A stretch of DNA of 64,000 bases from the sequence record MW822008.1; one strand, 5' to 3'. The stretch is from Escherichia phage BF17. Under the pieces are notes generated by a model that ran no database searches, was not told the DNA's origin, and saw only the letters and a program-made list of their open reading frames with translations. Of the stretch, positions 47,813 to 64,000 are shown in pieces; position 1 is the stretch's first letter, and the number at the start of each line of letters is the position of its first letter. A program made the position numbers and the translations under genes.

Positions 47813-48151
47813 ATGCTTGAGTTTTTTAATTCAGATACAATGCTTAGTATTACTTTGATTTATCTGTTTGGTTTTTTCTTTTATCATGCACTAGTTGTAG
47901 TACTATGGTATTTTAAAAAGAAAATCGTTTTCAAACTGTATCCTGATGGAAACATTTCACTACTTCTTTTCACTATTATCCAAGGTATGTTTGCAATTGT
48001 TGGTCTTATCGCACACTTAATTTATTGTGCTAATCCACAGTTGAACTCAATATCACAATATATTGTATTCCTTGGATTACTAATTTGGGTGCTGATATAC
48101 TTGTTTAATCTCATCATCAATGGTAGAGCAAAAATTCGTGGGGACTTCTAA
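47813..48151 (+). CDS. small multi-pass membrane protein, paralog family (cluster B, copy 1)
   Basis: 112-aa; hydrophobic; basic C-terminus RAKIRGDF. Confidence 0.65.
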   Translation: MLEFFNSDTMLSITLIYLFGFFFYHALVVVLWYFKKKIVFKLYPDGNISLLLFTIIQGMFAIVGLIAHLIYCANPQLNSISQYIVFLGLLIWVLIYLFNLIINGRAKIRGDF

Positions 48152-48498
48152 TGTTTGAATCTTATCTTGAGTTTTTAAAGAGTAGTTCTGTTGCACATTC
48201 AATTGCAGGGATTATTCTAACAGGTTATGTAACATTTTGGGTGGTTATGTTTCTAGGATGGTATTTTAAACGACAATTCTATAAGCGTAATGGTGAAGAT
48301 TTTATGAATTCTGTTATTAATCAATCGTTGTTTGCATCAACATTGATAGCATGTATTGTAGCAACACTCACAGGAAAGGTACTGCCAGCATTCTCCGCAG
48401 TTTACGGTACATTGGGTATGATATGTGTAGTTTTTTACTTGACCATTAAACTTTGTTGTGTTATGATTGACCTTCGAAACAAGATACCGGAGGAATGA
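48151..48498 (+). CDS. small multi-pass membrane protein (cluster B, copy 2)
   Basis: C-terminus LRNKIPEE; overlapping start/stop. Confidence 0.65.
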   Translation: MFESYLEFLKSSSVAHSIAGIILTGYVTFWVVMFLGWYFKRQFYKRNGEDFMNSVINQSLFASTLIACIVATLTGKVLPAFSAVYGTLGMICVVFYLTIKLCCVMIDLRNKIPEE

Positions 48499-48833
48499 TG
48501 GAATATTTTTTACACTTACTGCCGTGGTATATGAAAGTTAGTACTATGTACTATATTCTTAGTGCTGGATTCTACTTTCTGATGTGGTTCTTCAAACGAC
48601 CAATTTCAGTATTCATCTCTGATAACATGCTGCAATTAAAATTACACGCATGGTTTTTTATGGCGATGTTTATGCCTATTATTCACTACTCAATGATTAG
48701 TAGAGGGTTCCGTTCCAATGGTGAACCAATTATATTAGTATTCTATTGGGGTTCAACTATTGCATATGTAAGTTTGTTGTTGATCCCAGCCGTTCATAAA
48801 TTACGTGCTAAAGTTCCTGATGCGAGGTACTAA
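48495..48833 (+). CDS. small multi-pass membrane protein (cluster B, copy 3)
   Basis: C-terminus LRAKVPDARY; ATGA overlap. Confidence 0.65.
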   Translation: MMEYFLHLLPWYMKVSTMYYILSAGFYFLMWFFKRPISVFISDNMLQLKLHAWFFMAMFMPIIHYSMISRGFRSNGEPIILVFYWGSTIAYVSLLLIPAVHKLRAKVPDARY

Positions 48834-49147
48834 TGGATATCGTAACATTGATTTACACGCTTTATTCATTCTATTTTATTATGTGTTGGGTTGGATTTTT
48901 ATTTGTATTGAAGATGTTTGATTATGTTGAAAAACAGATAAAAGAATTTTGTATTCCTTTTATTGGGTCAACCATAATTAGTATTACTTGTTTGTATTAT
49001 TTGGTATGTGATCCACCTGTTAATACAGCAATGATTGACTTCATGTTATTACCAACAACAGTTATTTTTTTATGTAGTCTGATGCCACCGATTAGTCGTG
49101 GGCTAACCGAATTTAGACGCAATCAAAAGCGTAAACGAGGGATGTGA
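48833..49147 (+). CDS. small multi-pass membrane protein (cluster B, copy 4)
   Basis: C-terminus RRNQKRKRGM. Confidence 0.65.
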   Translation: MDIVTLIYTLYSFYFIMCWVGFLFVLKMFDYVEKQIKEFCIPFIGSTIISITCLYYLVCDPPVNTAMIDFMLLPTTVIFLCSLMPPISRGLTEFRRNQKRKRGM

Positions 49148-49515
49148 TGGAAATTGCACTTATTATATTAACTGCTATGTTGTTTATTAGTACAATTGTT
49201 ATTATTGGCAAGTTCTTCTGTGTATCCTTCTTGGAAACCGTATACGATGAAATTGCTGATGATTATGAATTACATGCGGGATTTTTTACTACGTATTGGA
49301 TTAGTTTATTACTACTTATCACTGTATGGATTTTACATATATTCAAATGGGGTATGGTAGATGGTGATCCAGTACTGGCAATTATCTGTGTAGTGTTTGG
49401 TCTACTCGGTGGTGCTGTCCATAATCTGATGGTAATTTGGCAAACCGTACAATATGTATTAGTTCCACATTTTCAGAGAATGCACCAAAGCATCAAATAC
49501 CGCAAACGAGGATAA
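49144..49515 (+). CDS. small multi-pass membrane protein (cluster B, copy 5)
   Basis: C-terminus SIKYRKRG. Confidence 0.65.
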   Translation: MMEIALIILTAMLFISTIVIIGKFFCVSFLETVYDEIADDYELHAGFFTTYWISLLLLITVWILHIFKWGMVDGDPVLAIICVVFGLLGGAVHNLMVIWQTVQYVLVPHFQRMHQSIKYRKRG

Positions 49516-49516
49516 C

Positions 49517-49879
49517 ATGAATAATATTGAATTATCTTTTATTGGTCAATTAATGGTAATGGCGTATACATTTATCTTCTCACTGAATGCATTCGTGTGC
49601 ATTGGGAAGTACTTCCATAAGCGACCATTATCAAATATATATGATGTAATACAAAGGAGATATAGTCCAGCATATACTGTGTTGAGTACAGCATTCAATT
49701 TTGGTTTTATTCTAATGCTGGTTGCATTATTAACATCGAGTTCGAATTTTATAACATTTGGTATTATGGTATGTTCACTAACACTGTGTGTGGTTATTCT
49801 CTGTGCATCAGTTGAGTTGATGGCGTGGATGTATAATAAGATTTCCGAAATCCATGAGCGTTTAGGTAAGAGGAACTAA
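49517..49879 (+). CDS. small multi-pass membrane protein (cluster B, copy 6)
   Basis: C-terminus HERLGKRN. Confidence 0.65.
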   Translation: MNNIELSFIGQLMVMAYTFIFSLNAFVCIGKYFHKRPLSNIYDVIQRRYSPAYTVLSTAFNFGFILMLVALLTSSSNFITFGIMVCSLTLCVVILCASVELMAWMYNKISEIHERLGKRN

Positions 49880-49880
49880 A

Positions 49881-50252
49881 ATGAGTTATCGTGAAATATT
49901 TTCGATCATTACTATTATTGTGTTTAGTTTAGGTTCTTTGATTTGGTTATTGTATTACTTCTGTGTAACCCCAGTATATAATATGCTAAATTCAGTTCGC
50001 TCTGATGTTGGTATTGTTTCTTTTATTATCTTCATGGCATATTATATGCTAAGTATCACAGGTTTGGTTTTGGTTGTTATCTTTGACCTTGGACCGAATC
50101 AAGATGGTATGGAGATGTGGGAATTGATAACGATGTTTGCATGTATGATACCTGCATTTGGTGTATGTGCTGGTGTATTTTATGGGTTGTGTAAAGGTGT
50201 AAACTACTTAAAAAATATCCACAATACTATTCGTAAAAAACGTATGTTGTAA
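49881..50252 (+). CDS. small multi-pass membrane protein (cluster B, copy 7)
   Basis: C-terminus IRKKRML. Confidence 0.65.
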   Translation: MSYREIFSIITIIVFSLGSLIWLLYYFCVTPVYNMLNSVRSDVGIVSFIIFMAYYMLSITGLVLVVIFDLGPNQDGMEMWELITMFACMIPAFGVCAGVFYGLCKGVNYLKNIHNTIRKKRML

Positions 50253-50288: not shown

Positions 50289-51413
50289 TTAATTATCTAA
50301 GCCACCAATTACACTGAACAGTGTGGTAACGTCTGAACTATTATCTATGTAAGTTCTTCTACCAACATAATATAGTTGTCCTTTTGCTTGAATAAAAGTT
50401 ACGGTCCCTGTATTGAATGTTATAATATCATTGTATGTAATGTCAGGTGGTAGTGCTGCTGATAACGCAGTAACTTTACTTAATGCAGCACTAGTACTAC
50501 CATTTATACCAGCAGCAATACTACCAGTACCATAGAACTTATTATCTTTACCAATGAATACGTTGGCTGATGCTTGTGTAGCTGATGTTATTGCCTTACC
50601 AATTTGGAATGCGGTTCCTATGGTGTATGGTGTGCTCCTGGCTGCGTCTATGCTTTGTGTATATCCATCCCCTAGCTGACCATTAACTTTGTCACCACAT
50701 GAGTATAAAGTACCATTGAGGCTGTATATGATCCCACGGTTAGAGAAGCTAACAGCTTCTGCATTAGTCCATACTGGAGCGGTGTATGAGTTTACACGAC
50801 TAGCAGTAGTTCCTAGTCCTAGTATACCATATGTGTTATCACCACATCCAAACCATTGTCCAGTACTGTTTTGATAGAACACTGAACGTTCTGTTGATTC
50901 CATGCGTACAGCATCCACAGCACCACTTTTAACGAACGAAGTGGATGAGGATGTAGTACCAGTACCCAATGCACCATAAGTGTTTGTACCAATCGCATAG
51001 ATTGATCCTAGTGGTGTCATCACACGTATACAGTTATATCCCAATTGAACTTTACATTCAAATAGGTTGTCCCATATTTCAGGAACAGCAGAAAATAAAT
51101 TTGTAATTTCGAACCATGATGTTGTCGAACCAATTAATCCTATACTGCTTTTGTTTCCTAAAATGAAAACAGTTTTGTCCTTCTTAATTATCCATGATGA
51201 TAGGAAACCTATCTCACAGCTATGAACATTTGATTCTATTTGGGTAATATAATACTTAACTGTGTTATCACCCATGAATGCCGCAGCACCGGATGCAAAA
51301 AGGTTTCCAGTTTGTTTATTTAAAATGTAGTTATTGTTTCCATATACACTAACATCATAAGAACTTTCTTGTTTTTCGTTCCCATAATCAAATAACAATA
51401 CGAAAGGTAACAT
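50289..51413 (-). CDS. RCC1-like repeat protein, MLPF-leader family member 1
   Basis: 374 aa; MLPFVLLFDYGN leader variant; G-x-N-x-x-G-Q-L-G-x-G repeats (GCGDNTYGILGLG, SCGDKVNGQLGDG); GGAG RBS. Confidence 0.8.
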   Translation of the reverse strand: MLPFVLLFDYGNEKQESSYDVSVYGNNNYILNKQTGNLFASGAAAFMGDNTVKYYITQIESNVHSCEIGFLSSWIIKKDKTVFILGNKSSIGLIGSTTSWFEITNLFSAVPEIWDNLFECKVQLGYNCIRVMTPLGSIYAIGTNTYGALGTGTTSSSTSFVKSGAVDAVRMESTERSVFYQNSTGQWFGCGDNTYGILGLGTTASRVNSYTAPVWTNAEAVSFSNRGIIYSLNGTLYSCGDKVNGQLGDGYTQSIDAARSTPYTIGTAFQIGKAITSATQASANVFIGKDNKFYGTGSIAAGINGSTSAALSKVTALSAALPPDITYNDIITFNTGTVTFIQAKGQLYYVGRRTYIDNSSDVTTLFSVIGGLDN

Positions 51414-51490
51414 GATAAAATCTCCTTGTGTTATACTTTATTTAATCATTTTATAATGTACAATTTTACAGCGATTTAATTGAGGTACTC

Positions 51491-52141
51491 ATGAATAAAA
51501 GAAGTAAGTTCTATCAAGAATATTTCACTAAACATAAACGATTCACAAAAAAATACTTTACATCATCCCACCGACCAGTTGCAAGTTACAAACGTCCTAA
51601 TACTAACTATCTTGCTGGTGGCAAGTTTAGTGCAAAGTTCGAATTACTTATGCGTGAAAAGAATATCAAGATGCATTACGCAGAGACGAGAAAAAACTCA
51701 TCAATTATTTGCTCTGATTTTCTTGAGTACGGTTGCTTAACTTATAAATTCAATGATGTATATTTGTATATTGATGTTGATTGTAACAGTACTCTTATGT
51801 TTGAGATTTCAATTCACCCAAATCACAACCGTTATATAAACATTAACTTGATTGATAAAGTACTGATTGGTATATCTAGTACTGATGGTGGTGGATTTGA
51901 ATTTATTGCTTCAAAATATGATGAAGATTTCGTACTTTACCCAGTACTTGATGATGTGAAAGATATTCTCAATTCATTAAAAGGAAGTCAATACAAATTA
52001 TCTGAAGAACAGCTATTTCAGTACTCACTTATTCATGATGATATCGAGATATACTTAGAGTGTGCGAGAATCTTGGAGTATCTTTATAATGAACTAACAA
52101 CAACTGGTAAAGTGACTGCATTCACATTATATAATATGTAA
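51491..52141 (+). CDS. hypothetical protein (EE-x-F-Q motif family)
   Basis: 216-aa plus-strand ORF embedded in the minus-strand array; SEEQLFQYSLI motif. Confidence 0.65.
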   Translation: MNKRSKFYQEYFTKHKRFTKKYFTSSHRPVASYKRPNTNYLAGGKFSAKFELLMREKNIKMHYAETRKNSSIICSDFLEYGCLTYKFNDVYLYIDVDCNSTLMFEISIHPNHNRYININLIDKVLIGISSTDGGGFEFIASKYDEDFVLYPVLDDVKDILNSLKGSQYKLSEEQLFQYSLIHDDIEIYLECARILEYLYNELTTTGKVTAFTLYNM

Positions 52142-52147
52142 AAGAAA

Positions 52148-52167
52148 AGCCAGTACATAGTACTGGC
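52148..52167. terminator. bidirectional terminator
   Basis: GCCAGTAC-ATA-GTACTGGC palindrome between convergent genes. Confidence 0.6.
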
Positions 52168-52173
52168 ATTATA

Positions 52174-53310
52174 TTAAACTGGTGGAGAATTATATGGCTC
52201 AAATTTATAAGTTGTCGTAGCAGTACCAGCAATGGCGTTGTTAGCTAGTATGTACATAGTCCTGTAGTCGATTACCACTACAGTAATACTACCACCAAAA
52301 GCATAGTCTGTTATGTTATTAGTGTTGAATGGTAAATTAGATGAACTGGTCCATGTATTAGCTGTTGTGCTATTTGTACCATTGGAATAACCTACACTAG
52401 ATGCACCAGTTGTCCATAAGTTTCCATCATTGAACAAGGAGACATGGTTAGTTGTATATGATTTATTAGGTATAGAACTATCAATTGGTGTATTCCAAAC
52501 TTTAGTAACCCATGTTGTAACTGCTGTATTATTAGTAACGCCATTACCTAATGAACCATTTATTGGTATACCTCTTATATAAGAAGTGTTAGTACTAGGG
52601 TCAACATATCCAAATGTATATGTATCAAATGCAAATTGAAAACAATCAGAACTCGGTAATGTGTACAGTAATGTATATGAAGACGTGTTTATTGATGAAT
52701 TTGTACCGTTCACACCTTGGTATAAAATACCACTAGCCAATATTTGATTATTATTTTTTGTTATAGTGTTCATTGATGGATATGTTTTCACATCACGCAC
52801 ATCATTAGTCACATATGTTTGTGTTGATAATGCAACGTTACTACCATTACCTATAACCCCTGTATTTGCACCACTCCCATAAAGTGAACCATCATTCAAA
52901 AGAACCATTGTAACATTACCATTTCCCGTAATTGTTTTAATATTACTAACATCCACCGCAGCAAATACAGTTGATGTTAAATCAGTGAAACGTGTATAAT
53001 GTGATGTTGTGCCATTGATTGGTGTCGCAAAACCAGAATACAAAATTCTATTTTCTTTGGTAATAAGGAATGTGCCAGTAACACCATTTGAATGGATATC
53101 AACAATATTATCGCCCATTAATACCCAATCACTTACGAATGTTGTTGTACCAGTACCCAACCCATATGTCGTATTGTATCCACGTCCATACACTCTACCA
53201 TCACTGAGTAATGTTACCACACATTGACCACCACCACCAAGTATAACTTTTTGTATAGTACTCTTTACTTTTATATTCCCGTACTTAACCATTCTTGCAA
53301 AAGGTAACAT
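52174..53310 (-). CDS. RCC1-like repeat protein, MLPF-leader family member 2
   Basis: 378 aa; MLPFARMVKYGN; co-transcribed with member 3 (14-nt gap with AAGGAG). Confidence 0.85.
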   Translation of the reverse strand: MLPFARMVKYGNIKVKSTIQKVILGGGGQCVVTLLSDGRVYGRGYNTTYGLGTGTTTFVSDWVLMGDNIVDIHSNGVTGTFLITKENRILYSGFATPINGTTSHYTRFTDLTSTVFAAVDVSNIKTITGNGNVTMVLLNDGSLYGSGANTGVIGNGSNVALSTQTYVTNDVRDVKTYPSMNTITKNNNQILASGILYQGVNGTNSSINTSSYTLLYTLPSSDCFQFAFDTYTFGYVDPSTNTSYIRGIPINGSLGNGVTNNTAVTTWVTKVWNTPIDSSIPNKSYTTNHVSLFNDGNLWTTGASSVGYSNGTNSTTANTWTSSSNLPFNTNNITDYAFGGSITVVVIDYRTMYILANNAIAGTATTTYKFEPYNSPPV

Positions 53311-53324
53311 TCTTTTTCTCCTTG

Positions 53325-54473
53325 TTATATTGATGGCATATCCAACACATATGAGTTGCTAGTGATTGATGAATATGTAGAATTTAAACCTGTACTATAA
53401 ACATAATCACCTGCCCATAAGAATGTTCTATCCAATGTTGTATGTATTTCAATATCATCATATGATGATAATGATATTTGTGCTAGTGTATATGTAGTAG
53501 CATCAATGTTTGAACCAATACCCAAAGTACCATTGTATTGTGATTGGGAGTTTTGACCAGTTGCATATATACCAGATTTGGTTATTAAATGCTGATTATA
53601 CATTGACGTACCTTTAAACAATTTAATTAAATTAGAGTTAGGTGTTGTTATTTGTGCAGGAGCAAGTATTGTTGTTGTAGTGCCACCATCACCTAATTGT
53701 CCATATCGTTGGTAACCACCAGCGTATACCTGTTTAACTCCAGTAGTAGTTTCTATAATAAAGAATGAACCATAGCCAGTAGTATTAAAGTCTATAATTT
53801 TATTTGTACTCAAACCAACATTATATCTAGTAAATGTTGTTGCATTAGCAGAACCACCAGCATTCCCACCGACCATTTGACCACTATAATAAAATGCACC
53901 AGTACTGTCAGTATAAGCCATACAGTTCTCACTACCATAGATTTTTACTGGTGTACTGGGGAAACTAGAGGTTATATTCACACATGTATTATATTTTGCA
54001 GTAGTTCCAGTAATTTCACCATTGTTGTTTTGACCAATTGCCCAAACTGTGTCATCGGAACGTATAGCCATTGAGCTAAAAAACGATGACACAAATTGTT
54101 TAATAAAGGAACCAGGGAGGGAAGTAAGCATACTATTGATTTGTGCACTCACATTGGTCCATGTATTCACAACTGAATTGACACCTGCCGCTGCACCTGA
54201 ACCTGAACTCCACCATGATTCATCATTCTTTTTAATCAATGTACCGTTAGCAGAACAATAAACATCAGCAACTGAACTATTAACTAATATCCATTCCCTC
54301 GCTGTTGTGGTATTACCAGTACCTAGCTGTCCTGCTGCATTACTACCCTTAGCATATAAATCACCACTCTGCGTTAAAAGCATAGCATGTTGGTATCCAG
54401 TAGATAATTTCTTTATTTTTGGTAATGCTGGTGCTTCATTTCCATAATCAAACATTCTAACAAAAGGTAACAT
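53325..54473 (-). CDS. RCC1-like repeat protein, MLPF-leader family member 3
   Basis: 382 aa; MLPFVRMFDYGN; AKGSNAAGQLGTGNTT, AGGYQRYGQLGDGGTT. Confidence 0.85.
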   Translation of the reverse strand: MLPFVRMFDYGNEAPALPKIKKLSTGYQHAMLLTQSGDLYAKGSNAAGQLGTGNTTTAREWILVNSSVADVYCSANGTLIKKNDESWWSSGSGAAAGVNSVVNTWTNVSAQINSMLTSLPGSFIKQFVSSFFSSMAIRSDDTVWAIGQNNNGEITGTTAKYNTCVNITSSFPSTPVKIYGSENCMAYTDSTGAFYYSGQMVGGNAGGSANATTFTRYNVGLSTNKIIDFNTTGYGSFFIIETTTGVKQVYAGGYQRYGQLGDGGTTTTILAPAQITTPNSNLIKLFKGTSMYNQHLITKSGIYATGQNSQSQYNGTLGIGSNIDATTYTLAQISLSSYDDIEIHTTLDRTFLWAGDYVYSTGLNSTYSSITSNSYVLDMPSI

Positions 54474-54543
54474 AATTCCCTCCTTTATTCATTATACTAT
54501 ATTTAATCAAAAAGAAAAGCCAGCACTCTGTACTGGCATAATA
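54474..54543 (-). terminator. array cassette: terminator hairpin + TATAAT + AAGGAGG
   Basis: Minus strand reads GCCAGTACAGAGTGCTGGC-TTTTCTTTTT...TATAGTATAATGAATAAAGGAGG-ATG. Confidence 0.65.
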
Positions 54544-55695
54544 TTATTTCCACGGTAGAAGTGAATCTGGAACTCTTGTTGGTACATTGGTTGTTGACAC
54601 ACCTGTGAGATTTGGAACACCACATGTATATAAATTATCAGCTTCATCCACTAGCATTGTATAAGAATATCCCCTACAAAAACTACCAATTGCACGGCCT
54701 TCTAATGCAGAAAGATTCATTTCAGTAAATGTTGTTATATTTGCCACGTTTGAACCAACACCACATTGACCATTTGTATTCAGACCACATAAAAATAACT
54801 TATTATTATTTTTAATTGTACATGATGGCCCTGCAAGGTTTGTGCCAAGTTCACCCACCAACTCTATTTCACCTTGGAATGATAAATTTGGAATTAATGC
54901 ACTCATAGGAACTGGTGTTGTATTTCCAGTACCAGCTTGTCCCCTAACGTTAGTTGAAGCCACTTTGACGGTCCCATCATTAAGAAATATATAAGAAGTT
55001 TCAATTGTATTGACTGCTTTAGTCGCAGTAATAATAGAAGATTCTTGAGTAAATGTTAGTACGTTTTGTGCTGATGTTCCTGATACAAATGTATTACCTG
55101 CGTACCAATATGTGCCATCATTGAGCACTAATCCAGTACTGCGTATTGCACACCCAGCACTTCGAACATTTTCAATAGTACTATAAGTGAATTGTGTAAC
55201 GCTTGCAGTTGAACCATTTCCAAATACACCACCTATTCCCGCTCCACAGTAGAACCACTTTCCATTTTTTAAAAATACACGTAAACAACCAGATATAACA
55301 ATATTATCAATATCATCTGCAATAACACCGAAGTCAGCAAAGTTCTGTGTTACTTCAACCCAAACACCGTTGGTATCTGCTGATAATATTGGAATTACAG
55401 ACCTTGAACCAGTGTACCAAATAGTTCCATTTTTCTTAATAGCAATTGTACCTTGAACACCACCCCAATAACGTTCCACATTTGTATTGACATTAGTCCA
55501 TGAAGTTGATGTGTTAGTTGAGCCATATGCACCATTACCGCTTTGTCCATATGTTGCTGTACCATACCAATATAGATCGCCTGTAGTGTGTAAATAAAAT
55601 TTGGAATCAGCCGAGCATTGTAATCTATTTTTAAATATAGGTTTTGGCTCTGGTGCTACATTCCCGAACTTAACCATTCTTGCAAAAGGTAACAT
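54544..55695 (-). CDS. RCC1-like repeat protein, MLPF-leader family member 4
   Basis: ORF track extends to 55761 through the RBS; trimmed to MLPFARMVKFGN start. Confidence 0.85.
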   Translation of the reverse strand: MLPFARMVKFGNVAPEPKPIFKNRLQCSADSKFYLHTTGDLYWYGTATYGQSGNGAYGSTNTSTSWTNVNTNVERYWGGVQGTIAIKKNGTIWYTGSRSVIPILSADTNGVWVEVTQNFADFGVIADDIDNIVISGCLRVFLKNGKWFYCGAGIGGVFGNGSTASVTQFTYSTIENVRSAGCAIRSTGLVLNDGTYWYAGNTFVSGTSAQNVLTFTQESSIITATKAVNTIETSYIFLNDGTVKVASTNVRGQAGTGNTTPVPMSALIPNLSFQGEIELVGELGTNLAGPSCTIKNNNKLFLCGLNTNGQCGVGSNVANITTFTEMNLSALEGRAIGSFCRGYSYTMLVDEADNLYTCGVPNLTGVSTTNVPTRVPDSLLPWK

Positions 55696-55772
55696 ATTTC
55701 CTCCTTTATTCATTATACTATATTTAATATAAAAAGAAAAGCCAGTATCAAGTACTGGCATAGTATTAAGGT
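55696..55772 (-). terminator. array cassette: terminator hairpin + TATAAT + AAGGAGG
   Basis: GCCAGTACTTGATACTGGC hairpin family. Confidence 0.65.
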
Positions 55773-56903
55773 TTAAATATTTTTATAATTAATTTCTACA
55801 TAGTTACGTTGTGTTCCAGTATATCCTGGAACATTACCTAAATTTCCATTACCTGCACCAAACAGACGTTCTCCGACTGCAAAATATGTCCCATAGAAAC
55901 AACCATCAAACACAGGAACATCATTATAATTTGATATGTAATTATCCATTGAATCCATTCTAGTGTATGCAGTCAGAGTTACATTTGTACCTATACCATA
56001 TGCACCATAAGGGTTAGTACCAGCAACATAATACCCAGTGGGTGTACATATTACTGGTGAATTTGCCCCTGATCTCGTGTGGATAAATCTAAATGTACCT
56101 TCAGGTACTGGTGCTTCTTTACTGAATAATGTTGTAGCTACTACTGGGTAATCAATACCATAACTATTACCACTCAACCACGTTTTACCATCACTATCTT
56201 TGAATAATGAACAGGATTGTGTGCATCCGAACAGATTCAAATTGGTTACATTTGGAAATTTACTAATTTGTGTATATACCAGAACTGTGGTTGCGGTAGC
56301 ACTACCAAGTTGTCCACGACCATTATCACCCGCACTGTACATGTACCCATCGGTCTTTAATATTATACTAGCGTTTCCTAAAATATCAAAATCAACAACA
56401 TCCGTTTGTGTTAATGTAGCTATAGGATAACGAAAATTCACTGCCTCACCAGTACCAAATTGACAATTGGTGTTTACCCCACATCCATATAAGTTGCCGT
56501 TTTGCATTAATATAAACAAACCTGTTGTCATTTTAATTTTCTTAATATTAAGAATATCTATATCTTGGAATATGTGTGTTACATTTACAAATGTGGTTGA
56601 GTTAACAGCACTTGAACCATAATAAGAACCGTTCCCGCTACCAAAGAATTCATCGCCTTTTCTGTACATTGCACATAGACTGCCACCCCATACATCATCA
56701 ACTCCAGTGTCAATTTGAATAACTGAAGTAACACTAGTTGTTGCACCAGTGCCAAGTTCACCACCTGAATTGAATCCAAAACCATACAAATCTCCACTTT
56801 CGGTGAGCACCAAAACACTGTTAGTGGTTGTGCATGAAATCTTTTTGATATTATTAGATGGTCTTTTATTTCCGTACTTAACCATTCTTGCAAAAGGTAA
56901 CAT
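55773..56903 (-). CDS. RCC1-like repeat protein, MLPF-leader family member 5
   Basis: Trimmed to MLPFARMVKYGN; GFGFNSGGELGTGATT, SAGDNGRGQLGSATATT. Confidence 0.85.
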   Translation of the reverse strand: MLPFARMVKYGNKRPSNNIKKISCTTTNSVLVLTESGDLYGFGFNSGGELGTGATTSVTSVIQIDTGVDDVWGGSLCAMYRKGDEFFGSGNGSYYGSSAVNSTTFVNVTHIFQDIDILNIKKIKMTTGLFILMQNGNLYGCGVNTNCQFGTGEAVNFRYPIATLTQTDVVDFDILGNASIILKTDGYMYSAGDNGRGQLGSATATTVLVYTQISKFPNVTNLNLFGCTQSCSLFKDSDGKTWLSGNSYGIDYPVVATTLFSKEAPVPEGTFRFIHTRSGANSPVICTPTGYYVAGTNPYGAYGIGTNVTLTAYTRMDSMDNYISNYNDVPVFDGCFYGTYFAVGERLFGAGNGNLGNVPGYTGTQRNYVEINYKNI

Positions 56904-56980
56904 AATTCCTCCTTTATTCATTATACTATATTTAATCAAAAATAAAAGCCAGTATCAAGTACTGGCATAGTTTTATAGTA
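56904..56980 (-). terminator. array cassette: terminator hairpin + TATAAT + AAGGAGG
   Basis: Conserved cassette copy. Confidence 0.65.
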
Positions 56981-58090
56981 TCATTTCGGCATTGTAATTG
57001 CAGACCATGAGTTCGTGGTAATAGGACCTGGCACATACAAAAAAGAACCACAAGCATAAATTTGATTATTACCATCAAATACTATACTAAAATGTGCACA
57101 TGTGTATAATGCTGATTTTTCTGGGTTGTAATTATCTAAAGTTAGTGTATTGGTGAATCTACTCAAACCACCACCAGAACCATTTCTACCAAATTCACCA
57201 GTACTATATATCTTTCCTTCGGTTGTTGCGTACATATTAACATATGAAGTTGCACTTGATTTTGATATTTTATGTATCTTACTATCAATAGTAGTGGAGT
57301 TAAATGCAAATGGATATACTTGTGTGTTCGTTGTAATACCGTTACCAAGTTGACCAACATACTGCCAACCTGCGTTGTATATATTGCTGGCTGAATAAGC
57401 AAGAGTACCAGTACTGTTACCACCAAACAGTTTAACACTGGTTAACCTGCTTACTAGTGTAGTATACTGTCCTGGACTTACGCCAAGTGAACCATACCCA
57501 CTACTCCCACAACCGAGAAGTTCACCATTTGATGTTAATATTAATGTGTTATTCTGTGTACCCAATATATCAAGGACTGTATTAGCTCCGGTATTAATAA
57601 CTGAAACAAAAGTACTCTGAGCCGTGGAATACCCACCACCGAGTGAATAGTTACCATTCATGCCTCTACCATAAACAATCGAACCACTAGCATCAACGTA
57701 GTGCATTGTATCTGCACCAATTGATATCATTTTAATATTAGATATATGTGGAAATGAAGAAGTAACATTCAAACCACCCAACGGAATCGTAGTATTTCCT
57801 GTGCCTAATTGTGTGGTAACTCCATGCATTATGAATTCTTCACCCTTGATATAAAGAATATTGTACGCCCCAGCCCATGCATCAGTAACACCTTCTGAAA
57901 TTAATATCCAAGTATTTCTTGTTGCTGTATTTGTAACGTTTAACTGAAAATACGAATTAACCCCACAACCATAAAGTGAGCCATCGCCATAGAGGACGTA
58001 CAAATTATCAAGACCGCACAGTACTTTCTTTATCTTTGGATCTTCAGGTGCAATATTCCCGTAATCAAACATTCTAACAAAAGGTAACAT
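56981..58090 (-). CDS. RCC1-like repeat protein, MLPF-leader family member 6
   Basis: Trimmed to MLPFVRMFDYGN; AGWQYVGQLGNGITT. Confidence 0.85.
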   Translation of the reverse strand: MLPFVRMFDYGNIAPEDPKIKKVLCGLDNLYVLYGDGSLYGCGVNSYFQLNVTNTATRNTWILISEGVTDAWAGAYNILYIKGEEFIMHGVTTQLGTGNTTIPLGGLNVTSSFPHISNIKMISIGADTMHYVDASGSIVYGRGMNGNYSLGGGYSTAQSTFVSVINTGANTVLDILGTQNNTLILTSNGELLGCGSSGYGSLGVSPGQYTTLVSRLTSVKLFGGNSTGTLAYSASNIYNAGWQYVGQLGNGITTNTQVYPFAFNSTTIDSKIHKISKSSATSYVNMYATTEGKIYSTGEFGRNGSGGGLSRFTNTLTLDNYNPEKSALYTCAHFSIVFDGNNQIYACGSFLYVPGPITTNSWSAITMPK

Positions 58091-58161
58091 ATTTCCTCCT
58101 TTATTCATTATACTATATTTAATACAAAAAGAAAAGCCAGTATCAAGTACTGGCCTATATC
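58091..58161 (-). terminator. array cassette: terminator hairpin + TATAAT + AAGGAGG
   Basis: Conserved cassette copy. Confidence 0.65.
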
Positions 58162-58899
58162 TTAGACTGAATTGTCAGGATAATATCTCCCACGTCCCCA
58201 TATTATTCGCACAGCACCACCACCAGCAGCCGTATAAGAAGAATTATCCCATATACTACCACCACCACCATACCTCTTACCAGCACCACCACTACCAGCA
58301 CCACCATTATATGAACCATCGTAGCTACCACCAATACCATTAGCACCTTGAACAATGATACCAGTACCACCACCCGTACCAATGAACGAGGTATTATAGA
58401 ATGCACCACCACCACCGCCCCCGCCAGCACCATTTTCACCAGTGATTGCATTTCCGTTACCACCTTTACCTGTGTAGCCACCAGCACCACCACCAATGAC
58501 TGCACCACCACTTAAACCAGTGTTGCCACCATTACCACCACCATCATTAATAGCGTTAGCAGCTTTTCCACCTAGTCCACCAACCGTATATGCACCAGTG
58601 AAGCTAACACATAGTTTTTCAGTTCCACGATATAAACCGTTTTCAACTGCTGTAGTAGTGTTGGGATGTGTAAGAGAAACACTTAAGTACTCACCACCAG
58701 AAACCGGAATATTATTACGCCACGATAAGCCGCCACCAGCACCACGTTGACCACCCGGCGAAATAACACATACTGATATTTCGGTAACGCCAGCAGGAAC
58801 TGTAAATTGTGTTGTTCCTATTGTCGTGATTAATTGTTCACCATGTGGCTTATATTCAATTTTATTCCCGAACTTAACCATTCTTGCAAAAGGTAACAT
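58162..58899 (-). CDS. glycine-rich protein with MLPF leader, family member 7
   Basis: 245 aa; MLPFARMVKFGN then FTVPAGVTEISVCVISPGGQRGAGGG and long GGxGG tracts; no RCC1-like motifs. Confidence 0.8.
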   Translation of the reverse strand: MLPFARMVKFGNKIEYKPHGEQLITTIGTTQFTVPAGVTEISVCVISPGGQRGAGGGLSWRNNIPVSGGEYLSVSLTHPNTTTAVENGLYRGTEKLCVSFTGAYTVGGLGGKAANAINDGGGNGGNTGLSGGAVIGGGAGGYTGKGGNGNAITGENGAGGGGGGGAFYNTSFIGTGGGTGIIVQGANGIGGSYDGSYNGGAGSGGAGKRYGGGGSIWDNSSYTAAGGGAVRIIWGRGRYYPDNSV

Positions 58900-58970
58900 A
58901 ATTCCCTCCTTTATTCATTATACTATATTTAACCAAAAAGAAAAGCCAGTATCAAGTACTGGCTTTTACA
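58900..58970 (-). terminator. array cassette: terminator hairpin + TATAAT + AAGGAGG
   Basis: Conserved cassette copy. Confidence 0.65.
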
Positions 58971-60161
58971 TTACAATTGTCTAGGTGTATCCAGTACATA
59001 TCTATTTGTACTAGGACCACCATCATCATAAGTTCCGGTTGAATATATATTTTTCATATCAGCAGTTAGGAAAGTACGTAACGACCCTCGATATATTTTT
59101 ATTTTATCATACATAGAATATGTTATTTCTGACGGCAATGGACATGCAGTAAATTTACCAATGGTAACATTAGAACCAACACCCAATGAACCAGCATAAC
59201 TACTCGCATTTAAACCTGTTGCATATACACCAGAACTCGTAACTAGTATACTAGATTGTGCTGGGTATCCAGTATGAATTGAATACAAAGTACCGGGTGG
59301 TAAGGTTGAACTATTATTTCCTAATACTGCTCGTGCTGTACTAGACGTAGTGTTATTACCCCATGCCCCATTATTGGCGTTCCCACCCACTAGGAACTGA
59401 CGTGCTCCTGTACTTGGATTCTCCACTAAAGCACTGACTGCACCAATTGTACATACAACATATTGTAATGTTTTTGTATATGTTGTACTTGGCTGATATA
59501 AAGTATATTGATTGTATGGAGTCCATGTATCAGTAGTACTTATACCTGATGTACTACCACCAATATATAAATTATTTTGTGTATCATAAAACATTACACA
59601 GCTATTTGTTGACTGTATTCGTGCAATATCAACATTAGGCGTGACAGCTTTTACAAATGATCCATCTGTTATTTGTTGAGTACTACCAGTACCATCAGCG
59701 AATTGTCTAGCCCCACTCCAACCAGTACTCCATATTGTATTATTATCCATTAAGAAAGTAAACCAAGTAGTACCTGCATACATCTGTTTAATTGAAGTAC
59801 CTGAACTTTGTGTGTACAAATTTTCAATATATTGGTTATAACTTAAAAATGATGTAGTACTAGTTTCTAAACCAATATGACCACCATATCCACAATAAAA
59901 ATAATTTAAGTCCTTATCTTGAACTAACAAAGTTCCTTGTGTCATCCAGCAATCTTTGACATTTTCTCTAATTAATGTCCACGACCTTACTGCATTATTA
60001 TTTCCGCGACCGAACTTCCCATAACTATTATTTCCTCGTGCGTATAGTTGACCGTCAGTATAAAGTACAACCACATCAGTATCAGTTGGTATTATTTTCT
60101 TAATTAGAAGAGGTTCAGGTGTGATATTCCCATAATCAAACAATCTAACAAAAGGTAACAT
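58971..60161 (-). CDS. RCC1-like repeat protein, MLPF-leader family member 8
   Basis: 396 aa; MLPFVRLFDYGN; ARGNNSYGKFGRGNNN. Confidence 0.85.
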   Translation of the reverse strand: MLPFVRLFDYGNITPEPLLIKKIIPTDTDVVVLYTDGQLYARGNNSYGKFGRGNNNAVRSWTLIRENVKDCWMTQGTLLVQDKDLNYFYCGYGGHIGLETSTTSFLSYNQYIENLYTQSSGTSIKQMYAGTTWFTFLMDNNTIWSTGWSGARQFADGTGSTQQITDGSFVKAVTPNVDIARIQSTNSCVMFYDTQNNLYIGGSTSGISTTDTWTPYNQYTLYQPSTTYTKTLQYVVCTIGAVSALVENPSTGARQFLVGGNANNGAWGNNTTSSTARAVLGNNSSTLPPGTLYSIHTGYPAQSSILVTSSGVYATGLNASSYAGSLGVGSNVTIGKFTACPLPSEITYSMYDKIKIYRGSLRTFLTADMKNIYSTGTYDDGGPSTNRYVLDTPRQL

Positions 60162-60231
60162 ATTTCCCTCCTTTATTCATTATACTATATTTAACCAAAA
60201 AGAAAAGCCAGTACTTGATACTGGCGTAATG
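60162..60231 (-). terminator. array cassette: terminator hairpin + TATAAT + AAGGAGG
   Basis: Conserved cassette copy. Confidence 0.65.
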
Positions 60232-61374
60232 TCAATAAGCTTCCCACGGTAAGGGTGTCTTCCTAAATCCATACCTGGTTGTGGTCGCACCATCACCAGC
60301 AATGTATCGACCGATACCACATTGGTATAACTCTGTACTACTACATATAGCACCACCAATAGTACCACTACTCCACAGAATTATATTAGAATATGTTATT
60401 GGTAAATCACTACATTTAGTATATACACCAACGGTAGCAGCCCCACTAATACCACCAAACATACTTCGGTTAGCACCAGTATAATATATACCATCTGGAC
60501 TCATAAATGCAGAGGTGTAAGTTGTACTACAATCCACTGGACTTCTTATAGTATTAAGATCGCCTGGGTATGTCCTGGCACCAAAGGTGTATACATTACC
60601 ATCAGTTGTAATACCATTACCTAACTGCCCACTGTTTTGTCCACCACATGTAAGCAACAATGCAGAACCAGAAACAATTGCAGTAGCATTATACGAAGTA
60701 CCCATCGCAATAGAAGCACCAGACAATAGTTTTGGAGTAACAATAGCTGTTGTATTACCCTGGCCTAATTCACCATTGATATTTCGTCCCCATGCGTATA
60801 TAGAAGTTGTATCCAATCGACATAGTACTGAACCATAACTAAACGTATATCGCATGTCAATTACCGCATTAGGCAAATTAACCTTAGTTGCAACACTAAT
60901 AACACCACCAGTAACACCACTGTTTGCGTTCATGTTACGACCATATGCATATAAAGAACCATCTGAAGTTTTAATATGCATCATACCATCTGTACAATAC
61001 AATGCATCTATACTATCCACTGCAACCGGACCCATACTGGTAGTTATATCGGTCCACCCAAGCGTGGTAGTACTGGAAATTAAGTTATTTCCGGCGTATA
61101 GTATTCTATTATTATTAGTAACTACAACTGTATATCTGGCAGTAACACCAATTAATCGAACATCAGTATATATCTTAGACCACGCACCTAATGAATTGGT
61201 GTTTGCATCCAAAAAGCCCAACTGCCCATCTGTATTGTATCCAATACCCCATACATCACCTGCACTGTCCAATAACACTTCATGTGAAAATCCAATCTTA
61301 AAATCTTTTATTGTAGGAACTACCGGAACTGGTGCAATATTCCCGTACTTAACCATTCTAGCAAAAGGTAACAT
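60232..61374 (-). CDS. RCC1-like repeat protein, MLPF-leader family member 9
   Basis: 380 aa; MLPFARMVKYGN; GIGYNTDGQLGFLD, AWGRNINGELGQGNTT, CGGQNSGQLGNGITT. Confidence 0.85.
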   Translation of the reverse strand: MLPFARMVKYGNIAPVPVVPTIKDFKIGFSHEVLLDSAGDVWGIGYNTDGQLGFLDANTNSLGAWSKIYTDVRLIGVTARYTVVVTNNNRILYAGNNLISSTTTLGWTDITTSMGPVAVDSIDALYCTDGMMHIKTSDGSLYAYGRNMNANSGVTGGVISVATKVNLPNAVIDMRYTFSYGSVLCRLDTTSIYAWGRNINGELGQGNTTAIVTPKLLSGASIAMGTSYNATAIVSGSALLLTCGGQNSGQLGNGITTDGNVYTFGARTYPGDLNTIRSPVDCSTTYTSAFMSPDGIYYTGANRSMFGGISGAATVGVYTKCSDLPITYSNIILWSSGTIGGAICSSTELYQCGIGRYIAGDGATTTRYGFRKTPLPWEAY

Positions 61375-61445
61375 AATTCCCTCCTTTATTCATTATACTA
61401 TATTTAATACAAATAAGAATGCCAGTATCAAGTACTGGCATTATG
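61375..61445 (-). terminator. array cassette: terminator hairpin + TATAAT + AAGGAGG
   Basis: Conserved cassette copy (weaker U-tract). Confidence 0.6.
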
Positions 61446-62555
61446 TTATTTTGGTAAATCAATTTTAGTAAAGACTGCAACATCCTCGCTTGCTCCAGGA
61501 ATGGCGTAATACGATCCAGTACTATACACATCTCCATCTTTGGTTAATATTGATGTCAAACCATCACTAAAAAGAACATCCCTAATTGCACTAACTTCAA
61601 CGGGTAATTGTAAATTTGTAGCACTATATATAGCACCAGTTTGAGAATTGTTTAATCCCAAACCACGGTTCGCCCCAACACCCTTCTGATATGTACTAGT
61701 AATTACCATTTGTGTCGCAGTATTTAAGGCAGGTGAATTCGTCATAAACAACGGAGAACTATTCGGCAAAGTACTTACAGGAACTGCACGGAATGTAGTC
61801 GTACCTGAACTAAGAAAGTTTGGAGTTTGACCACATACGAAATATGATGTGCCATTATAGTAATTTAATGCATTACCACCAATTGCTGCATCGATTACAC
61901 CAGAACTACGTAATCCCCAAGTGTTAACTTGTGTTTGGCTCCCCGTGCCATGCTGCCCACTGCTATTCCATCCAGAACTATATAGCTTATTATCTAATGT
62001 AAGATACATACTATCATTCGCATTGGTCATTACTTTACGAACGTTCGTAGCACATTGAGTTAATGTGTAAATTGATGATGAACCAATACCTAAAGAACCA
62101 CGATATCCATTATCTCCTGCACCATAGAGTACTGAATTAGTGCTAAGTACAAATATTAAACCATTTGTACATACAATATTAGCAATTTCACTTACTGGTA
62201 TTGCATTTGTGAACCAACTGGTTCTATCAACTAATACAGTACTGTAAGAAGTAGTTGTGGAAGATGTGAACCAGTACGTTTGACCTGATGACCATATCGT
62301 ATTATCATTTTTAATAATAACAAGTGTACGATCACCCACGAAAAAATTAGAAACATCTGTACTTACTAATATCCATGAGGATACTGTGTTGGTATTTCCA
62401 TTTCCAGATTCACCACCTTGATTTCTACCTATGTAATATAAATCATGTGAATCTGTCAATAAGAATTGACCCTGTGTAGAAGCACCAACTTTAATTATAT
62501 TTTTAGGACCAGGTGTGATATTCCCATAATCAAACAATCTAACAAAAGGTAACAT
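61446..62555 (-). CDS. RCC1-like repeat protein, MLPF-leader family member 10
   Basis: 369 aa; MLPFVRLFDYGN; co-transcribed with member 11 (10-nt gap with AAGGAG). Confidence 0.85.
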   Translation of the reverse strand: MLPFVRLFDYGNITPGPKNIIKVGASTQGQFLLTDSHDLYYIGRNQGGESGNGNTNTVSSWILVSTDVSNFFVGDRTLVIIKNDNTIWSSGQTYWFTSSTTTSYSTVLVDRTSWFTNAIPVSEIANIVCTNGLIFVLSTNSVLYGAGDNGYRGSLGIGSSSIYTLTQCATNVRKVMTNANDSMYLTLDNKLYSSGWNSSGQHGTGSQTQVNTWGLRSSGVIDAAIGGNALNYYNGTSYFVCGQTPNFLSSGTTTFRAVPVSTLPNSSPLFMTNSPALNTATQMVITSTYQKGVGANRGLGLNNSQTGAIYSATNLQLPVEVSAIRDVLFSDGLTSILTKDGDVYSTGSYYAIPGASEDVAVFTKIDLPK

Positions 62556-62565
62556 ATTTCTCTCC

Positions 62566-63696
62566 TTAATTTAGTAATGCCCCTGGCAAATCCACTTTGA
62601 CGAATTGTGCATATGCTGAGGAATTTTGATCAAAGTTTGGTCCCAATCCATAAAATGAGCTAATGCCGTCTTCATTTGTGTATATGATATAAACGTTCTT
62701 TACATCATTTCCGCATATAAATCGAATGTCTTTCGTTTGTGTTCCCGCTGGAACATTACGAAGGTTCACAACGCCATTACTTGCATTGTTATCAGCCGAC
62801 GCAATTGGTAATTGATTTTGACCATATTGACCACGCATATTTTTTGCATCTAAACCAAACACAGTATCTGATACCGCACCAACTTTCAAAAATGAACCAA
62901 AACTATTATTGAATGACTTTGGAAATGTACCACTATAAACACTTCTCCCATCTGATAATACCGCTGAACTGAATTTCCCGCTATTCGATATGGCAAATTC
63001 ATTGTAAGGAAGTGTACCCATTTTGGTATATACAGAATATGAATTAGTGGAAGTATTATCAATAATCTTATTACCATTATATCCAATACCATACTGGTAT
63101 CCGTCTGCATCTTGAACTATACACAAAGGACCACTTGGGGTTTGTGTCAACGAAACAACACGTTCAACTTGTATATCACCAAATGTATTTCTTCGCCATG
63201 TTCTATCTATTATAGTACTAGTATTACCCAAAGATAATGCCACACTATATAATAGATTGTTTTCAGTAAAAATGGCAACATAATATGCGTGGTTAATAAC
63301 TTGCTTCATCCCAGCATCAATAACTTCCTGTGGAATATGATCAGTAACATCCAACCAATCAAGGTTAGATGATGCAATATCTGGAGTACTGAATTTGTCA
63401 AATCTAGTTGAGCCACAAACTAGCACTCTATCATCATTTGTCAAAGCCACTGTGCTAGTCTGCATATTAGAACTGAATGATTTAACATTACTAATGTTAG
63501 ACTTGTACCAACCCTTATCAGCAGCACCCACCGTGAATCCGGTTCCCATTGATCCACTTGTACTTGTACCATAAGCCCACATCTCACCACTATATGTTAG
63601 TGCCATACAGTGGCTTCCATTTGCTTGGAAATCCTTTATACCAGTGGGAGCAACCACTGTATTCCCATAATCAAACATTCTAACAAAAGGTAACAT
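62566..63696 (-). CDS. RCC1-like repeat protein, MLPF-leader family member 11
   Basis: Trimmed to MLPFVRMFDYGN; AYGTSTSGSMGTGFT. Confidence 0.85.
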   Translation of the reverse strand: MLPFVRMFDYGNTVVAPTGIKDFQANGSHCMALTYSGEMWAYGTSTSGSMGTGFTVGAADKGWYKSNISNVKSFSSNMQTSTVALTNDDRVLVCGSTRFDKFSTPDIASSNLDWLDVTDHIPQEVIDAGMKQVINHAYYVAIFTENNLLYSVALSLGNTSTIIDRTWRRNTFGDIQVERVVSLTQTPSGPLCIVQDADGYQYGIGYNGNKIIDNTSTNSYSVYTKMGTLPYNEFAISNSGKFSSAVLSDGRSVYSGTFPKSFNNSFGSFLKVGAVSDTVFGLDAKNMRGQYGQNQLPIASADNNASNGVVNLRNVPAGTQTKDIRFICGNDVKNVYIIYTNEDGISSFYGLGPNFDQNSSAYAQFVKVDLPGALLN

Positions 63697-63770
63697 AACT
63701 AAAATCTCCATATAATAATTATAATGTATTTACAAAAAAATACCAGTACGTATTTCAGTACTGGTATCAT
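63697..63770 (-). terminator. variant array cassette: terminator hairpin + TTATAAT + GGAG
   Basis: Minus strand ATACCAGTACTGAAATACGTACTGGTAT + TTTTTTT then TTATAAT and GGAG before ATG. Confidence 0.6.
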
Positions 63771-64000
63771 TTATGGTAAAATGATAGATTGTAACGAACT
63801 CATACCCAATGCTGGAACACTAGCCTGTGGTGCTGGAGAATTCAATTTTGGTGATGAAACCGCATAAGTCATTCCTGTACCCAAATCTGGATCAAAAACT
63901 ACAGCACAATAATTCCCACTATATATAAGTCCATTCTTGTATCCTTGTGCACTTTGAATGCATTTCGTGAACGTACCAATATCTGTAGTGGCATTTATTA
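63771..64000 (-). CDS. C-terminal fragment of a further beta-rich gene (family member 12, truncated by window edge)
   Basis: Minus-strand frame open from window edge to TAA (plus 63771-63773); translates ...GTGMTYAVSSPKLNSPAPQASVPALGMSSLQSIILP. Confidence 0.5.
   Translation of the reverse strand, partial: INATTDIGTFTKCIQSAQGYKNGLIYSGNYCAVVFDPDLGTGMTYAVSSPKLNSPAPQASVPALGMSSLQSIILP

Follow-up and report, generated by a model that had tools for sequence, protein, structure and literature searches.

Between position 50289 and the end of the 64,000-nucleotide stretch of Escherichia phage BF17 analyzed here (record MW822008.1; hereafter the window) lies a tandem array of minus-strand genes that share a 12-residue N-terminal peptide, which we call the leader. 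The locus is that of a 121Q/PBECO4-type jumbo myovirus of E. coli, genus Asteriusvirus, within the Rak2-like group. According to the open reading frame (ORF) listing of the 64 kb, eleven members are complete and encode proteins of 245-396 residues; ten of these are RCC1-like propellers with seven blades, the other being glycine-rich and fibre-tip-like. A six-frame search of the whole window with the 12-residue pattern, allowing up to three substitutions, returned exactly 11 matches, each of them on the minus strand and at the start of a gene (51413, 53310, 54473, 55695, 56903, 58090, 58899, 60161, 61374, 62555, and 63696), and none elsewhere. The pattern in the window reads MLPF[AV]R[ML][VF][KD][YF]GN and falls into two classes: class A, MLPFARMVK[YF]GN, at starts 53310, 55695, 56903, 58899, and 61374, and class B, MLPFVR[ML]FDYGN, at starts 54473, 58090, 60161, 62555, and 63696. 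A first-pass annotation, made from the letters alone, had given this start to all twelve genes. That description fits apart from two cases: at 51413 the leader MLPFVLLFDYGN, a degenerate class B form, carries L rather than R at position 6 and departs from the exact pattern, and the leader of the twelfth, partial gene lies outside the window.

Numbered by coordinate, the array opens with member 1 (50289-51413, 374 residues), which carries the degenerate leader and matches Pfam RCC1 (E = 6e-13) and WD40_RLD (E = 3e-18). Member 2 (52174-53310, 378 residues, class A leader MLPFARMVKYGN) matches WD40_RLD (E = 1.2e-8) and phrog_4219 (E = 2.3e-46), with RCC1_2 under the cut-off. Members 3 (53325-54473, 382 residues, class B leader MLPFVRMFDYGN), 6 (56981-58090, 369 residues, class B), 8 (58971-60161, 396 residues, class B leader MLPFVRLFDYGN), and 10 (61446-62555, 369 residues, class B, likewise MLPFVRLFDYGN) were assigned as RCC1-like propellers from Pfam and the leader search. 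The remaining propellers are member 4 (54544-55695, 383 residues, class A leader MLPFARMVKFGN), member 5 (55773-56903, 376 residues, class A, WD40_RLD E = 2.8e-33), member 9 (60232-61374, 380 residues, class A), and member 11 (62566-63696, 376 residues, class B). Member 7 (58162-58899, 245 residues, class A leader MLPFARMVKFGN) is the glycine-rich protein, combining a TNF-like and a polyglycine part. Only the C-terminal fragment of member 12 (63771-64000) is included, as the array runs on past the window; its DNA is 94.7% identical to g592 of phage fEgEco12, whose start reads MLPFVRMFDYGN. The full fEgEco12 array counts 15 members, with the leader on all 15.

The RCC1-like nature of the propellers, as proposed in the first-pass annotation, was borne out by profile and structure comparisons. 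Pfam models for RCC1-like propellers (PF00415, PF13540, PF25390) were applied, and WD40_RLD, the RCC1-like domain model, matched all ten non-glycine-rich members (E = 1e-8 to 3e-33). The gathering cut-off of RCC1 or RCC1_2 was passed by eight of the ten, genes 52174-53310 and 54544-55695 falling short. A family profile matched UVR8 with E = 1.6e-44. Member 9 was the sole propeller modeled with AlphaFold; its model comprises 28 strands at a predicted local distance difference test score (pLDDT) of 91.2 and can be superposed on UVR8, RPGR, HERC2, and RCC1 with template-modeling (TM) scores of 0.65-0.77 (Foldseek: 0.74-0.77 to UVR8, 0.65-0.69 to RCC1 and RPGR), the seven-bladed propeller fold thus being predicted for this one member. 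Propellers of the array are near-neutral, with isoelectric points (pI) of 5.2-7.7 and K+R roughly equal to D+E. The ten propeller bodies are homologous to one another at 20-28% identity, and the earlier statement that the proteins “diverge completely” after the leader was overstated. The separation into leader and variable body nevertheless stands, with a mean identity of 79% for the leader vs 25% for the bodies over 45 paralogue pairs in the window. The C-termini of many propellers also share a similar short motif, in which [LM]-P-x(0-5) comes after a hydrophobic or aromatic strand, e.g., ...TPLPWEAY, ...KIDLPK, ...AITMPK, or ...VLDMPSI.

The glycine-rich member (58162-58899) is the sole basic protein of the array (pI 9.06). 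Its AlphaFold model (pLDDT 92.1 overall) predicts a TNF-like sandwich and a polyglycine lattice, as found in phage fibre tips. The window protein itself gave no Pfam match at E ≤ 1, whereas PF21722 (Gly_rich_2) is matched by many of its homologues, one of them at E = 9.6e-8, and by its orthologue in Salmonella phage Munch (E = 1.4e-5). Matches to known tail-fibre families had been named beforehand as an outcome that would speak against the propeller proposal. The result is divided: the propellers keep their RCC1 support, while the glycine-rich member does match tail-fibre domains, which strengthens a role in host interaction rather than refuting it.

Both AlphaFold models place the leader outside the folded domain. 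In the propeller model, residues 1-12, i.e., exactly the leader, form the only segment with a pLDDT under 50, followed by a short linker (residues 13-20, pLDDT ~61) that is often proline-rich across members. In the glycine-rich model, residues 1-10 alone fall under 50. The possibility that the leader acts as an N-terminal “velcro” strand closing the propeller was ruled out, given the low confidence of residues 1-12 and the occurrence of the leader on non-propeller folds.

Across relatives, the leader follows the wider consensus M-[LI]-P-F-x-[RK]-[ILM]-h-x-[YF]-[GA]-N, in which M1, P3, F4, R6, Y10, G11, and N12 are nearly invariant (alignment of 23 family sequences). It reads MLPFSRIIQYGN and MLPFARIFRYGD in GAP32, MLPF[SPA][RI]... 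in CBB, MLPF[PS][IV]I... in Yersinia phage fHe-Yen9-04, and MFPIP[IV]IS.YGN in Xanthomonas phage XaC1. The Munch array is the most informative for the level at which selection acts. All 17 of its tandem genes start with M-I-P-F-[ATSP]-[RK]-[ILM]-[LMI]-x-Y-[GA]-N, on bodies ~35% identical to those of the window, and many of the genes overlap their neighbor and have unrelated DNA upstream. Residues I2, P3, F4, Y10, and N12 are invariant in Munch while the codons vary; Gly11 is encoded by all four glycine codons and Arg6 by AGG, AGA, and CGT. Because Munch keeps the peptide with synonymous codons and without conserved upstream DNA, the leader is under purifying selection at the protein level.

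The leader is not confined to propellers. Besides the RCC1 bodies (members 1-6 and 8-11) and the glycine-rich body (member 7, and gene 544 of Munch with its PF21722 match), it precedes ConA-like/Laminin_G_3 lectins in Munch (gene 534, E = 6e-9), in CBB (CBB_548 and CBB_551), and in the GAP32_002 family, as well as Kelch propellers in CBB (CBB_550 and CBB_552). Uncultivated jumbo-phage contigs encode mixed arrays of RCC1, Kelch, and LamG types, every gene of which starts MIPFARI[SV]KYGN, and CBB has one solitary leader-LamG gene outside its array. By sequence comparison, at least four ligand-binding folds without relation to one another (RCC1, Kelch, ConA-like/LamG, and glycine-rich) bear the leader as a graft. 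Its distribution is restricted to one lineage: when 2.9 million viral contigs were searched with a degenerate back-translation of the leader, 17 stretches matched, all on contigs of 348-378 kb, namely 121Q, Serratia BF, GAP32, CBB, and four uncultivated relatives.

Outside this lineage, the same body types come with other N-termini. Most homologues of the glycine-rich member lack MLPF, and 15 of 27 inspected begin M-[LIF]-E-[MLT]-[LM]..., including PVP-SE1 gp19 (MFEMMLATSE). ConA-like bodies in rV5-like phages start MEEMLLVGGGK (4MG) or MNEMLMLGQAK (PBES02). A second leader, M-x-E-[ML]-[LM]-[LMA].., is thus seen on ConA-like and glycine-rich bodies in rV5-like phages (Vequintavirinae, ~150 kb), uncultivated phages, and metagenomes, and may represent an analogous tag system. 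A second copy of the M-x-E-M-L leader was not found in the 4MG genome, which has it on one gene, and the parallel is therefore drawn across genomes. Two lineages with different short peptides on the same body types would be expected if each peptide fits a lineage-specific site on the particle. Likewise, RCC1 domains of C. difficile phages align to the array proteins only from after the leader onward. One of these phages, phiCD211, encodes a 1,759-residue protein with an N-proximal RCC1-like domain inside its tail-fibre module, which shows that RCC1 propellers are in use in tail-module proteins of unrelated phages.

Array genes are also alike upstream of the leader. Most are preceded by a GC-rich hairpin with a T-run (GCCAGTACTTGATACTGGC-TTTTCTTTTT), a 17-nucleotide box TTAAATATAGTATAATG (also given as TTAAATATAGTATAAT), a strong ribosome-binding site, and the ATG. 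The box occurs in seven exact copies, all within the array, at a chance expectation of 1.5 loose matches (up to three mismatches), and terminator-like hairpins number 19 where 6.3 ± 2.4 are expected. A representative boundary on the minus strand (55660-55765) comprises the hairpin (55741-55759), the box (55711-55727), the ribosome-binding site, and the 36-nucleotide leader sequence (55660-55695); near-identical copies of it precede seven other members. Sigma-70 promoters upstream of each gene were considered and rejected, as such promoters are not enriched (49 vs 68 expected) and the box has no -35 element. For this reason, the box is probably read by a phage-specific factor; sigma factors are encoded in related genomes of the Rak2-like group. 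Within Asteriusvirus, conservation at the DNA level covers ~70 nucleotides upstream and the 36 coding nucleotides of the leader, and this ~106-nucleotide unit is present in 5-16 copies per genome. The conserved unit explains spurious upstream starts, seen in ORF calls as well as in certain database records. In the window the ORF finder placed three starts upstream of the leader (MNKGGNMLPF...), with extensions at 55696-55761 (member 4), 56904-56939, and 58091-58108. ATG or TTG codons that are in frame within the conserved 5' untranslated region give these false extensions (...PVLDTGFSF..IKYSIMNKGGN-MLPF...), whose translation runs through the terminator hairpin. The same false extension is present in at least one database protein, JP4_581 (418 residues).

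Comparison with close relatives points to this boundary as a site of exchange. Over 73% of its length, the array region shares 97% identity with fEgEco12, and 35 other records of the same group match it. Relative to fEgEco12, the window has gene 54544-55695 as an extra cassette, lacks g589 between 61374 and 61446, and has gene 62566-63696 in place of g591. At these differences, the flanking alignments overlap by ~119-120 nucleotides, corresponding to the boundary of terminator, promoter, and leader. Judged from these alignments, whole cassettes are gained, lost, and replaced between close relatives at the conserved ~120-nucleotide boundary. A hybrid leader, MLPFVRMVKYGN, in fEgEco12 g594 has the residue of class B at position 5 and those of class A at positions 8-9, which points to crossovers within the leader itself. 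Coverage in relatives is 20-73% for the array and 25-75% for the adjacent 13.7 kb, itself accessory, and no hotspot is claimed. The arrangement resembles the PeSL promoter-terminator cassettes of T4-type phages (PMC2839356, PMC4122927), in which a stem-loop and promoter motif flank variable genes, and insertions, deletions, and replacements between close relatives have their junctions in the motif. Unlike in PeSL cassettes, the repeat in the array takes in the first 36 coding nucleotides, so that exchange keeps the tag in frame, and its promoter box is not a sigma-70 early promoter.

Contrary to the first-pass annotation, which could not place the array in a known module and treated virion presence as an open question, RCC1-like arrays of 121Q, PBECO4, and phAPEC6, i.e., the same locus and genus, are in GenBank and in the literature (PMC5259590, PMC7247149), and array products have been detected by mass spectrometry. 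The CBB paper of 2017 lists the RCC1-like GAP32_001 as a structural protein known from mass spectrometry and noted multi-copy homologues in 121Q and PBECO4 (PMC5259590); GAP32_001 is the single homologue in GAP32. The phAPEC6 paper of 2020 described “eleven similar RCC1-like proteins”, found eight array products in the virion proteome, and speculated that the RCC1-like proteins order DNA in the inner body (PMC7247149). Liquid chromatography-tandem mass spectrometry of JP4 virions lists, in its protein-level table, three array members, including JP4_582, the orthologue of the modeled propeller at 60232-61374. CBB_548, 549, 551, 552, and 553 are annotated as structural proteins, and the GAP32_002 family corresponds to phrog_6011, “virion structural protein”. 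Leader-bearing proteins of all four fold classes are thereby recorded as virion components. The fENko-Kae01 proteome was discounted as evidence, since it derives from an unpurified, ultrafiltered lysate with many non-structural proteins. Array, RCC1 nature, and virion association are hence already published and not new. The shared N-terminus is unmentioned in the searchable text of the CBB, phAPEC6, and fEgEco12 papers and of a large comparative review of jumbo phages, the motif string was not found in the literature searched, and the searchable text of the papers on the 121Q, PBECO4, and phAPEC6 arrays is silent on a leader over non-RCC1 folds and on cassette boundaries. What appears to be undescribed is a lineage-restricted 12-residue tag, conserved at the protein level, outside the fold, on at least four folds, and within a recombinogenic boundary.

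From these data, the leader probably serves in one way or another as a signal for incorporation into the virion, and the suggestion of the first-pass annotation that the dodecapeptide serves assembly or targeting of host-interaction or virion proteins is the reading the evidence favors. More specifically, and with somewhat better than even confidence, we interpret it as a docking peptide particular to the lineage, by which interchangeable adhesin modules are mounted on the outside of the virion. The leader, followed by a short linker, would be an incorporation tag specific to the Rak2-like jumbo phages. As a flexible N-terminal tail it might dock non-covalently into a common acceptor site on the particle, most probably an external one, namely the hair-like fibres or decoration sites on tail and capsid. 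We infer a single acceptor site, its external location, and a function in adhesion. Through the tag, the phage would mount compact ligand-binding modules, RCC1 propellers and a glycine-rich tip here, Kelch propellers and ConA-like lectins in relatives also, and a virion would display a mixed set of adhesins, each at low copy. In this reading, each gene is a cassette complete in itself, with terminator, phage promoter, ribosome-binding site, leader, and body, the ~120-nucleotide boundary doubling as a homologous-recombination site at which cassettes may be inserted, deleted, or swapped between co-infecting relatives. Precedent exists in an N-terminal “conserved peptide” borne by secondary receptor-binding proteins, which has been shown experimentally to be needed for virion incorporation and to be transplantable.

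By analogy, an external location is favored by the glycine-rich fold, the tail-fibre context of the phiCD211 protein, the near-neutral propellers, and the terminal globules on the hairs of CBB. Hair-like fibres occur on tail and capsid in Rak2-like phages, and those of CBB end in “tiny terminal globular structures”, the proteins forming the hairs not being assigned (PMC5259590). Several points weigh against this interpretation. Both the acceptor and the place of the leader proteins on the particle are putative, and a sequence search found no relatives of the leader proteins in solved virion structures. Signals in mass spectrometry are weak (1-5 peptides per protein), and individual detections are marginal. 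GAP32 has leader proteins but no reported hair-like structures, and propellers, as globular proteins of 40 kDa and not fibres, cannot make up the hairs. For the external location, the support consists of fold analogy for one window member out of eleven and of context in unrelated phages.

The most serious competitor starts from the inner body shown by 121Q and phAPEC6 and from their T4-type head: in T4, a tag of similar kind targets diverse proteins to the capsid interior. Accordingly, the leader might be a capsid-targeting sequence that brings diverse proteins into the prohead scaffold or inner body, to be ejected with the DNA as effectors, e.g., against host defence. The T-even internal proteins, a diverse set sharing only their targeting sequence, follow the same genetic logic as the array; the major capsid protein of 121Q-type phages, a member of the T4 gp23 family, undergoes proteolytic processing, and the low abundance of leader proteins in virions fits as well. 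It is also the location proposed by the phAPEC6 authors (PMC7247149). The likeness to T4 IPI, IPII, IPIII, and Alt (PMC3012670) extends to an N-terminal tag of ~10 residues, diverse genes of fast turnover, and a virion destination. It breaks down at the processing site: the T4 sequence ends in a prohead-protease site ([LI]-x-E) and is cleaved, whereas the leader contains no glutamate and is followed by no conserved protease site, residues 13-20 being variable (IAPE.., KRPSNN, IKVKST, TVVAPT) and in many members without glutamate, although protease specificity in the Rak2-like group may differ. Nor do the bodies fit, as T4 internal proteins are small, basic, and embedded in DNA and the array proteins are rigid, beta-rich folds of 25-43 kDa with near-neutral propellers. 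The glycine-rich body has a receptor-binding fold of tail fibres, and LamG, Kelch, and RCC1 are typical extracellular, ligand-binding scaffolds, the last with the tail-fibre-module precedent of phiCD211; the same bodies carry another leader in the ~150-kb rV5-like phages. To our knowledge, the leader has no sequence similarity to the T4 tag MKTYQEFIAE. We consider capsid targeting unlikely, and somewhat less probable still a role confined to the infected cell, in which a chaperone, assembly factor, or membrane complex recognizes the leader, the proteins act there or at the envelope (e.g., in superinfection exclusion, jointly with the neighboring membrane-protein array), and virion detection reflects carry-over. 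The array of small membrane proteins that adjoins the leader array in four genera, the low mass spectrometry signals, and the many non-structural proteins in the fENko-Kae01 proteome would fit such a role. Repeated detection in purified virions of phAPEC6, JP4, CBB, and GAP32, with all four fold classes represented, speaks against it, as does the resemblance of the bodies to fibre-tip and lectin domains, and the leader qualifies neither as a signal peptide nor as a lipobox.

Two further explanations are very improbable. One takes the leader as a peptide without function, a by-product of concerted evolution of the cassette at the DNA level or of a need in translation initiation. The window by itself would be compatible with it, given conservation of DNA for ~70 nucleotides upstream of the ATG, the seven identical boxes, the recombination junctions within the boundary segment, and the hybrid leader in fEgEco12. 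Pure DNA homogenization is, however, largely refuted by the Munch data described above, and the leader persists across genera with diverged DNA (GAP32, CBB, Yersinia, Xanthomonas) and on the solitary CBB gene outside any array. The other, comparably doubtful, regards the array proteins as DNA-condensation or chromosome-organizing factors that the leader targets to phage DNA or the packaging machinery. It draws on Pfam and PHROG names and on the speculation in the phAPEC6 paper. Array genes are labeled “regulator of chromosome condensation”, “putative DNA condensation protein”, “GTPase regulator”, or “hypothetical protein” in databases, and PHROG files their products under “DNA, RNA and nucleotide metabolism”. 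Human RCC1, a guanine-nucleotide exchange factor for Ran, is the source of the name, and we know of no Ran in bacteria or phages. The nearest folds are generic RCC1-like domains (UVR8, RPGR, HERC2), the propellers are not basic, and the same leader stands on lectin, Kelch, and fibre-tip domains without a DNA-related role. The “DNA condensation” annotation is a transfer of name without support.

Mechanistically, the leader is akin to known kinds of element, either docking peptides of receptor-binding proteins or the T4 capsid-targeting sequence, and not a new category. As in the docking of receptor-binding proteins through a “conserved peptide” and a branching domain, the peptide is separable from the folded body, and L2 and F4 of the leader are comparable to the key contacts Leu2 and Phe5. 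The systems differ in several respects. The leader has 12 residues vs about 29, without sequence similarity; it is carried by propellers and lectins of monomer-like kind, not by trimeric beta-helix depolymerases; and it has up to 15-17 clients per genome vs one. The window holds no candidate for a partner protein with a T4gp10-like (XD2/XD3) branching domain, although no search aimed at such a partner was made. Requirement and transplantability are established for the “conserved peptide”, whereas for the leader the evidence is correlative, consisting in the four fold classes recorded in virions. A second parallel is provided by gp38-type tail-fibre adhesins (T2, T6, S16) and the Pam3 gp24 fibre, whose receptor-binding tips are glycine-rich (PMC9608196). 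The glycine-rich member shares their layout, with an attachment element at the N-terminus ahead of the tip, and is of similar size (~250 residues). The Pam3 gp24 fibre is docked to the baseplate by a helical domain at its N-terminus, receptor binding being the task of the distal domains (PMC9608196); the leader of the glycine-rich member holds the position of that docking domain. Unlike in these adhesins, the attachment element is a 12-residue tail instead of a helical bundle or attachment domain, and the glycine-rich protein is one member of a mixed array.

A bolder version, which we regard as possible but rather doubtful, has one acceptor, at hair-fibre tips or capsid hexamer centers, loaded stochastically with any of 6-17 lectin-like modules (RCC1, Kelch, LamG, polyglycine). 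Particles would then be mosaic and adhesion hedged, with the tag boundary as recombination site and a parallel M-x-E-M-L system in rV5-like phages. If the leader is a docking tag, the purpose of the “chromosome condensation” arrays in jumbo coliphages that are candidates for therapy would be explained, and the unexplained hair-like appendages would have a candidate decoration. The locus would be a determinant of adsorption or host range, which would explain its differences between near-identical isolates. The leader would also offer a 12-residue handle for the display of foreign proteins on a very large virion and for rational adhesin swaps, as with the “conserved peptide” of podophages. An annotation error, the label “DNA condensation protein” given to array proteins across databases, is corrected as well. 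Should internal targeting be true instead, the array would represent a large store of effectors for injection, likewise of interest.

One gene inside the array departs from its organization. It lies on the plus strand (51491-52141), encodes 216 residues without leader, matches phrog_34359 and no Pfam family, and is kept as g581 in fEgEco12. A bidirectional hairpin (52149-52167) is common to this gene and the neighboring array gene. Converging on the leader array, seven tandem plus-strand genes (47813-50252) encode small, hydrophobic membrane-type proteins of 104-123 residues with basic C-termini, each in its own PHROG without assigned function. Small-protein arrays also adjoin the leader arrays of CBB (CBB_543-547, annotated as membrane proteins), Munch (genes 529-533), and Yersinia phage fHe-Yen9-04 (g521-524). 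This conserved synteny suggests a possible functional link between the two arrays. The GC skew turns from positive to negative at ~50000, exactly at the switch of coding strand where the array begins. Elsewhere in the window, a lone minus-strand gene (17084-18241) among plus-strand genes encodes an acidic protein of 385 residues without Pfam family or leader.

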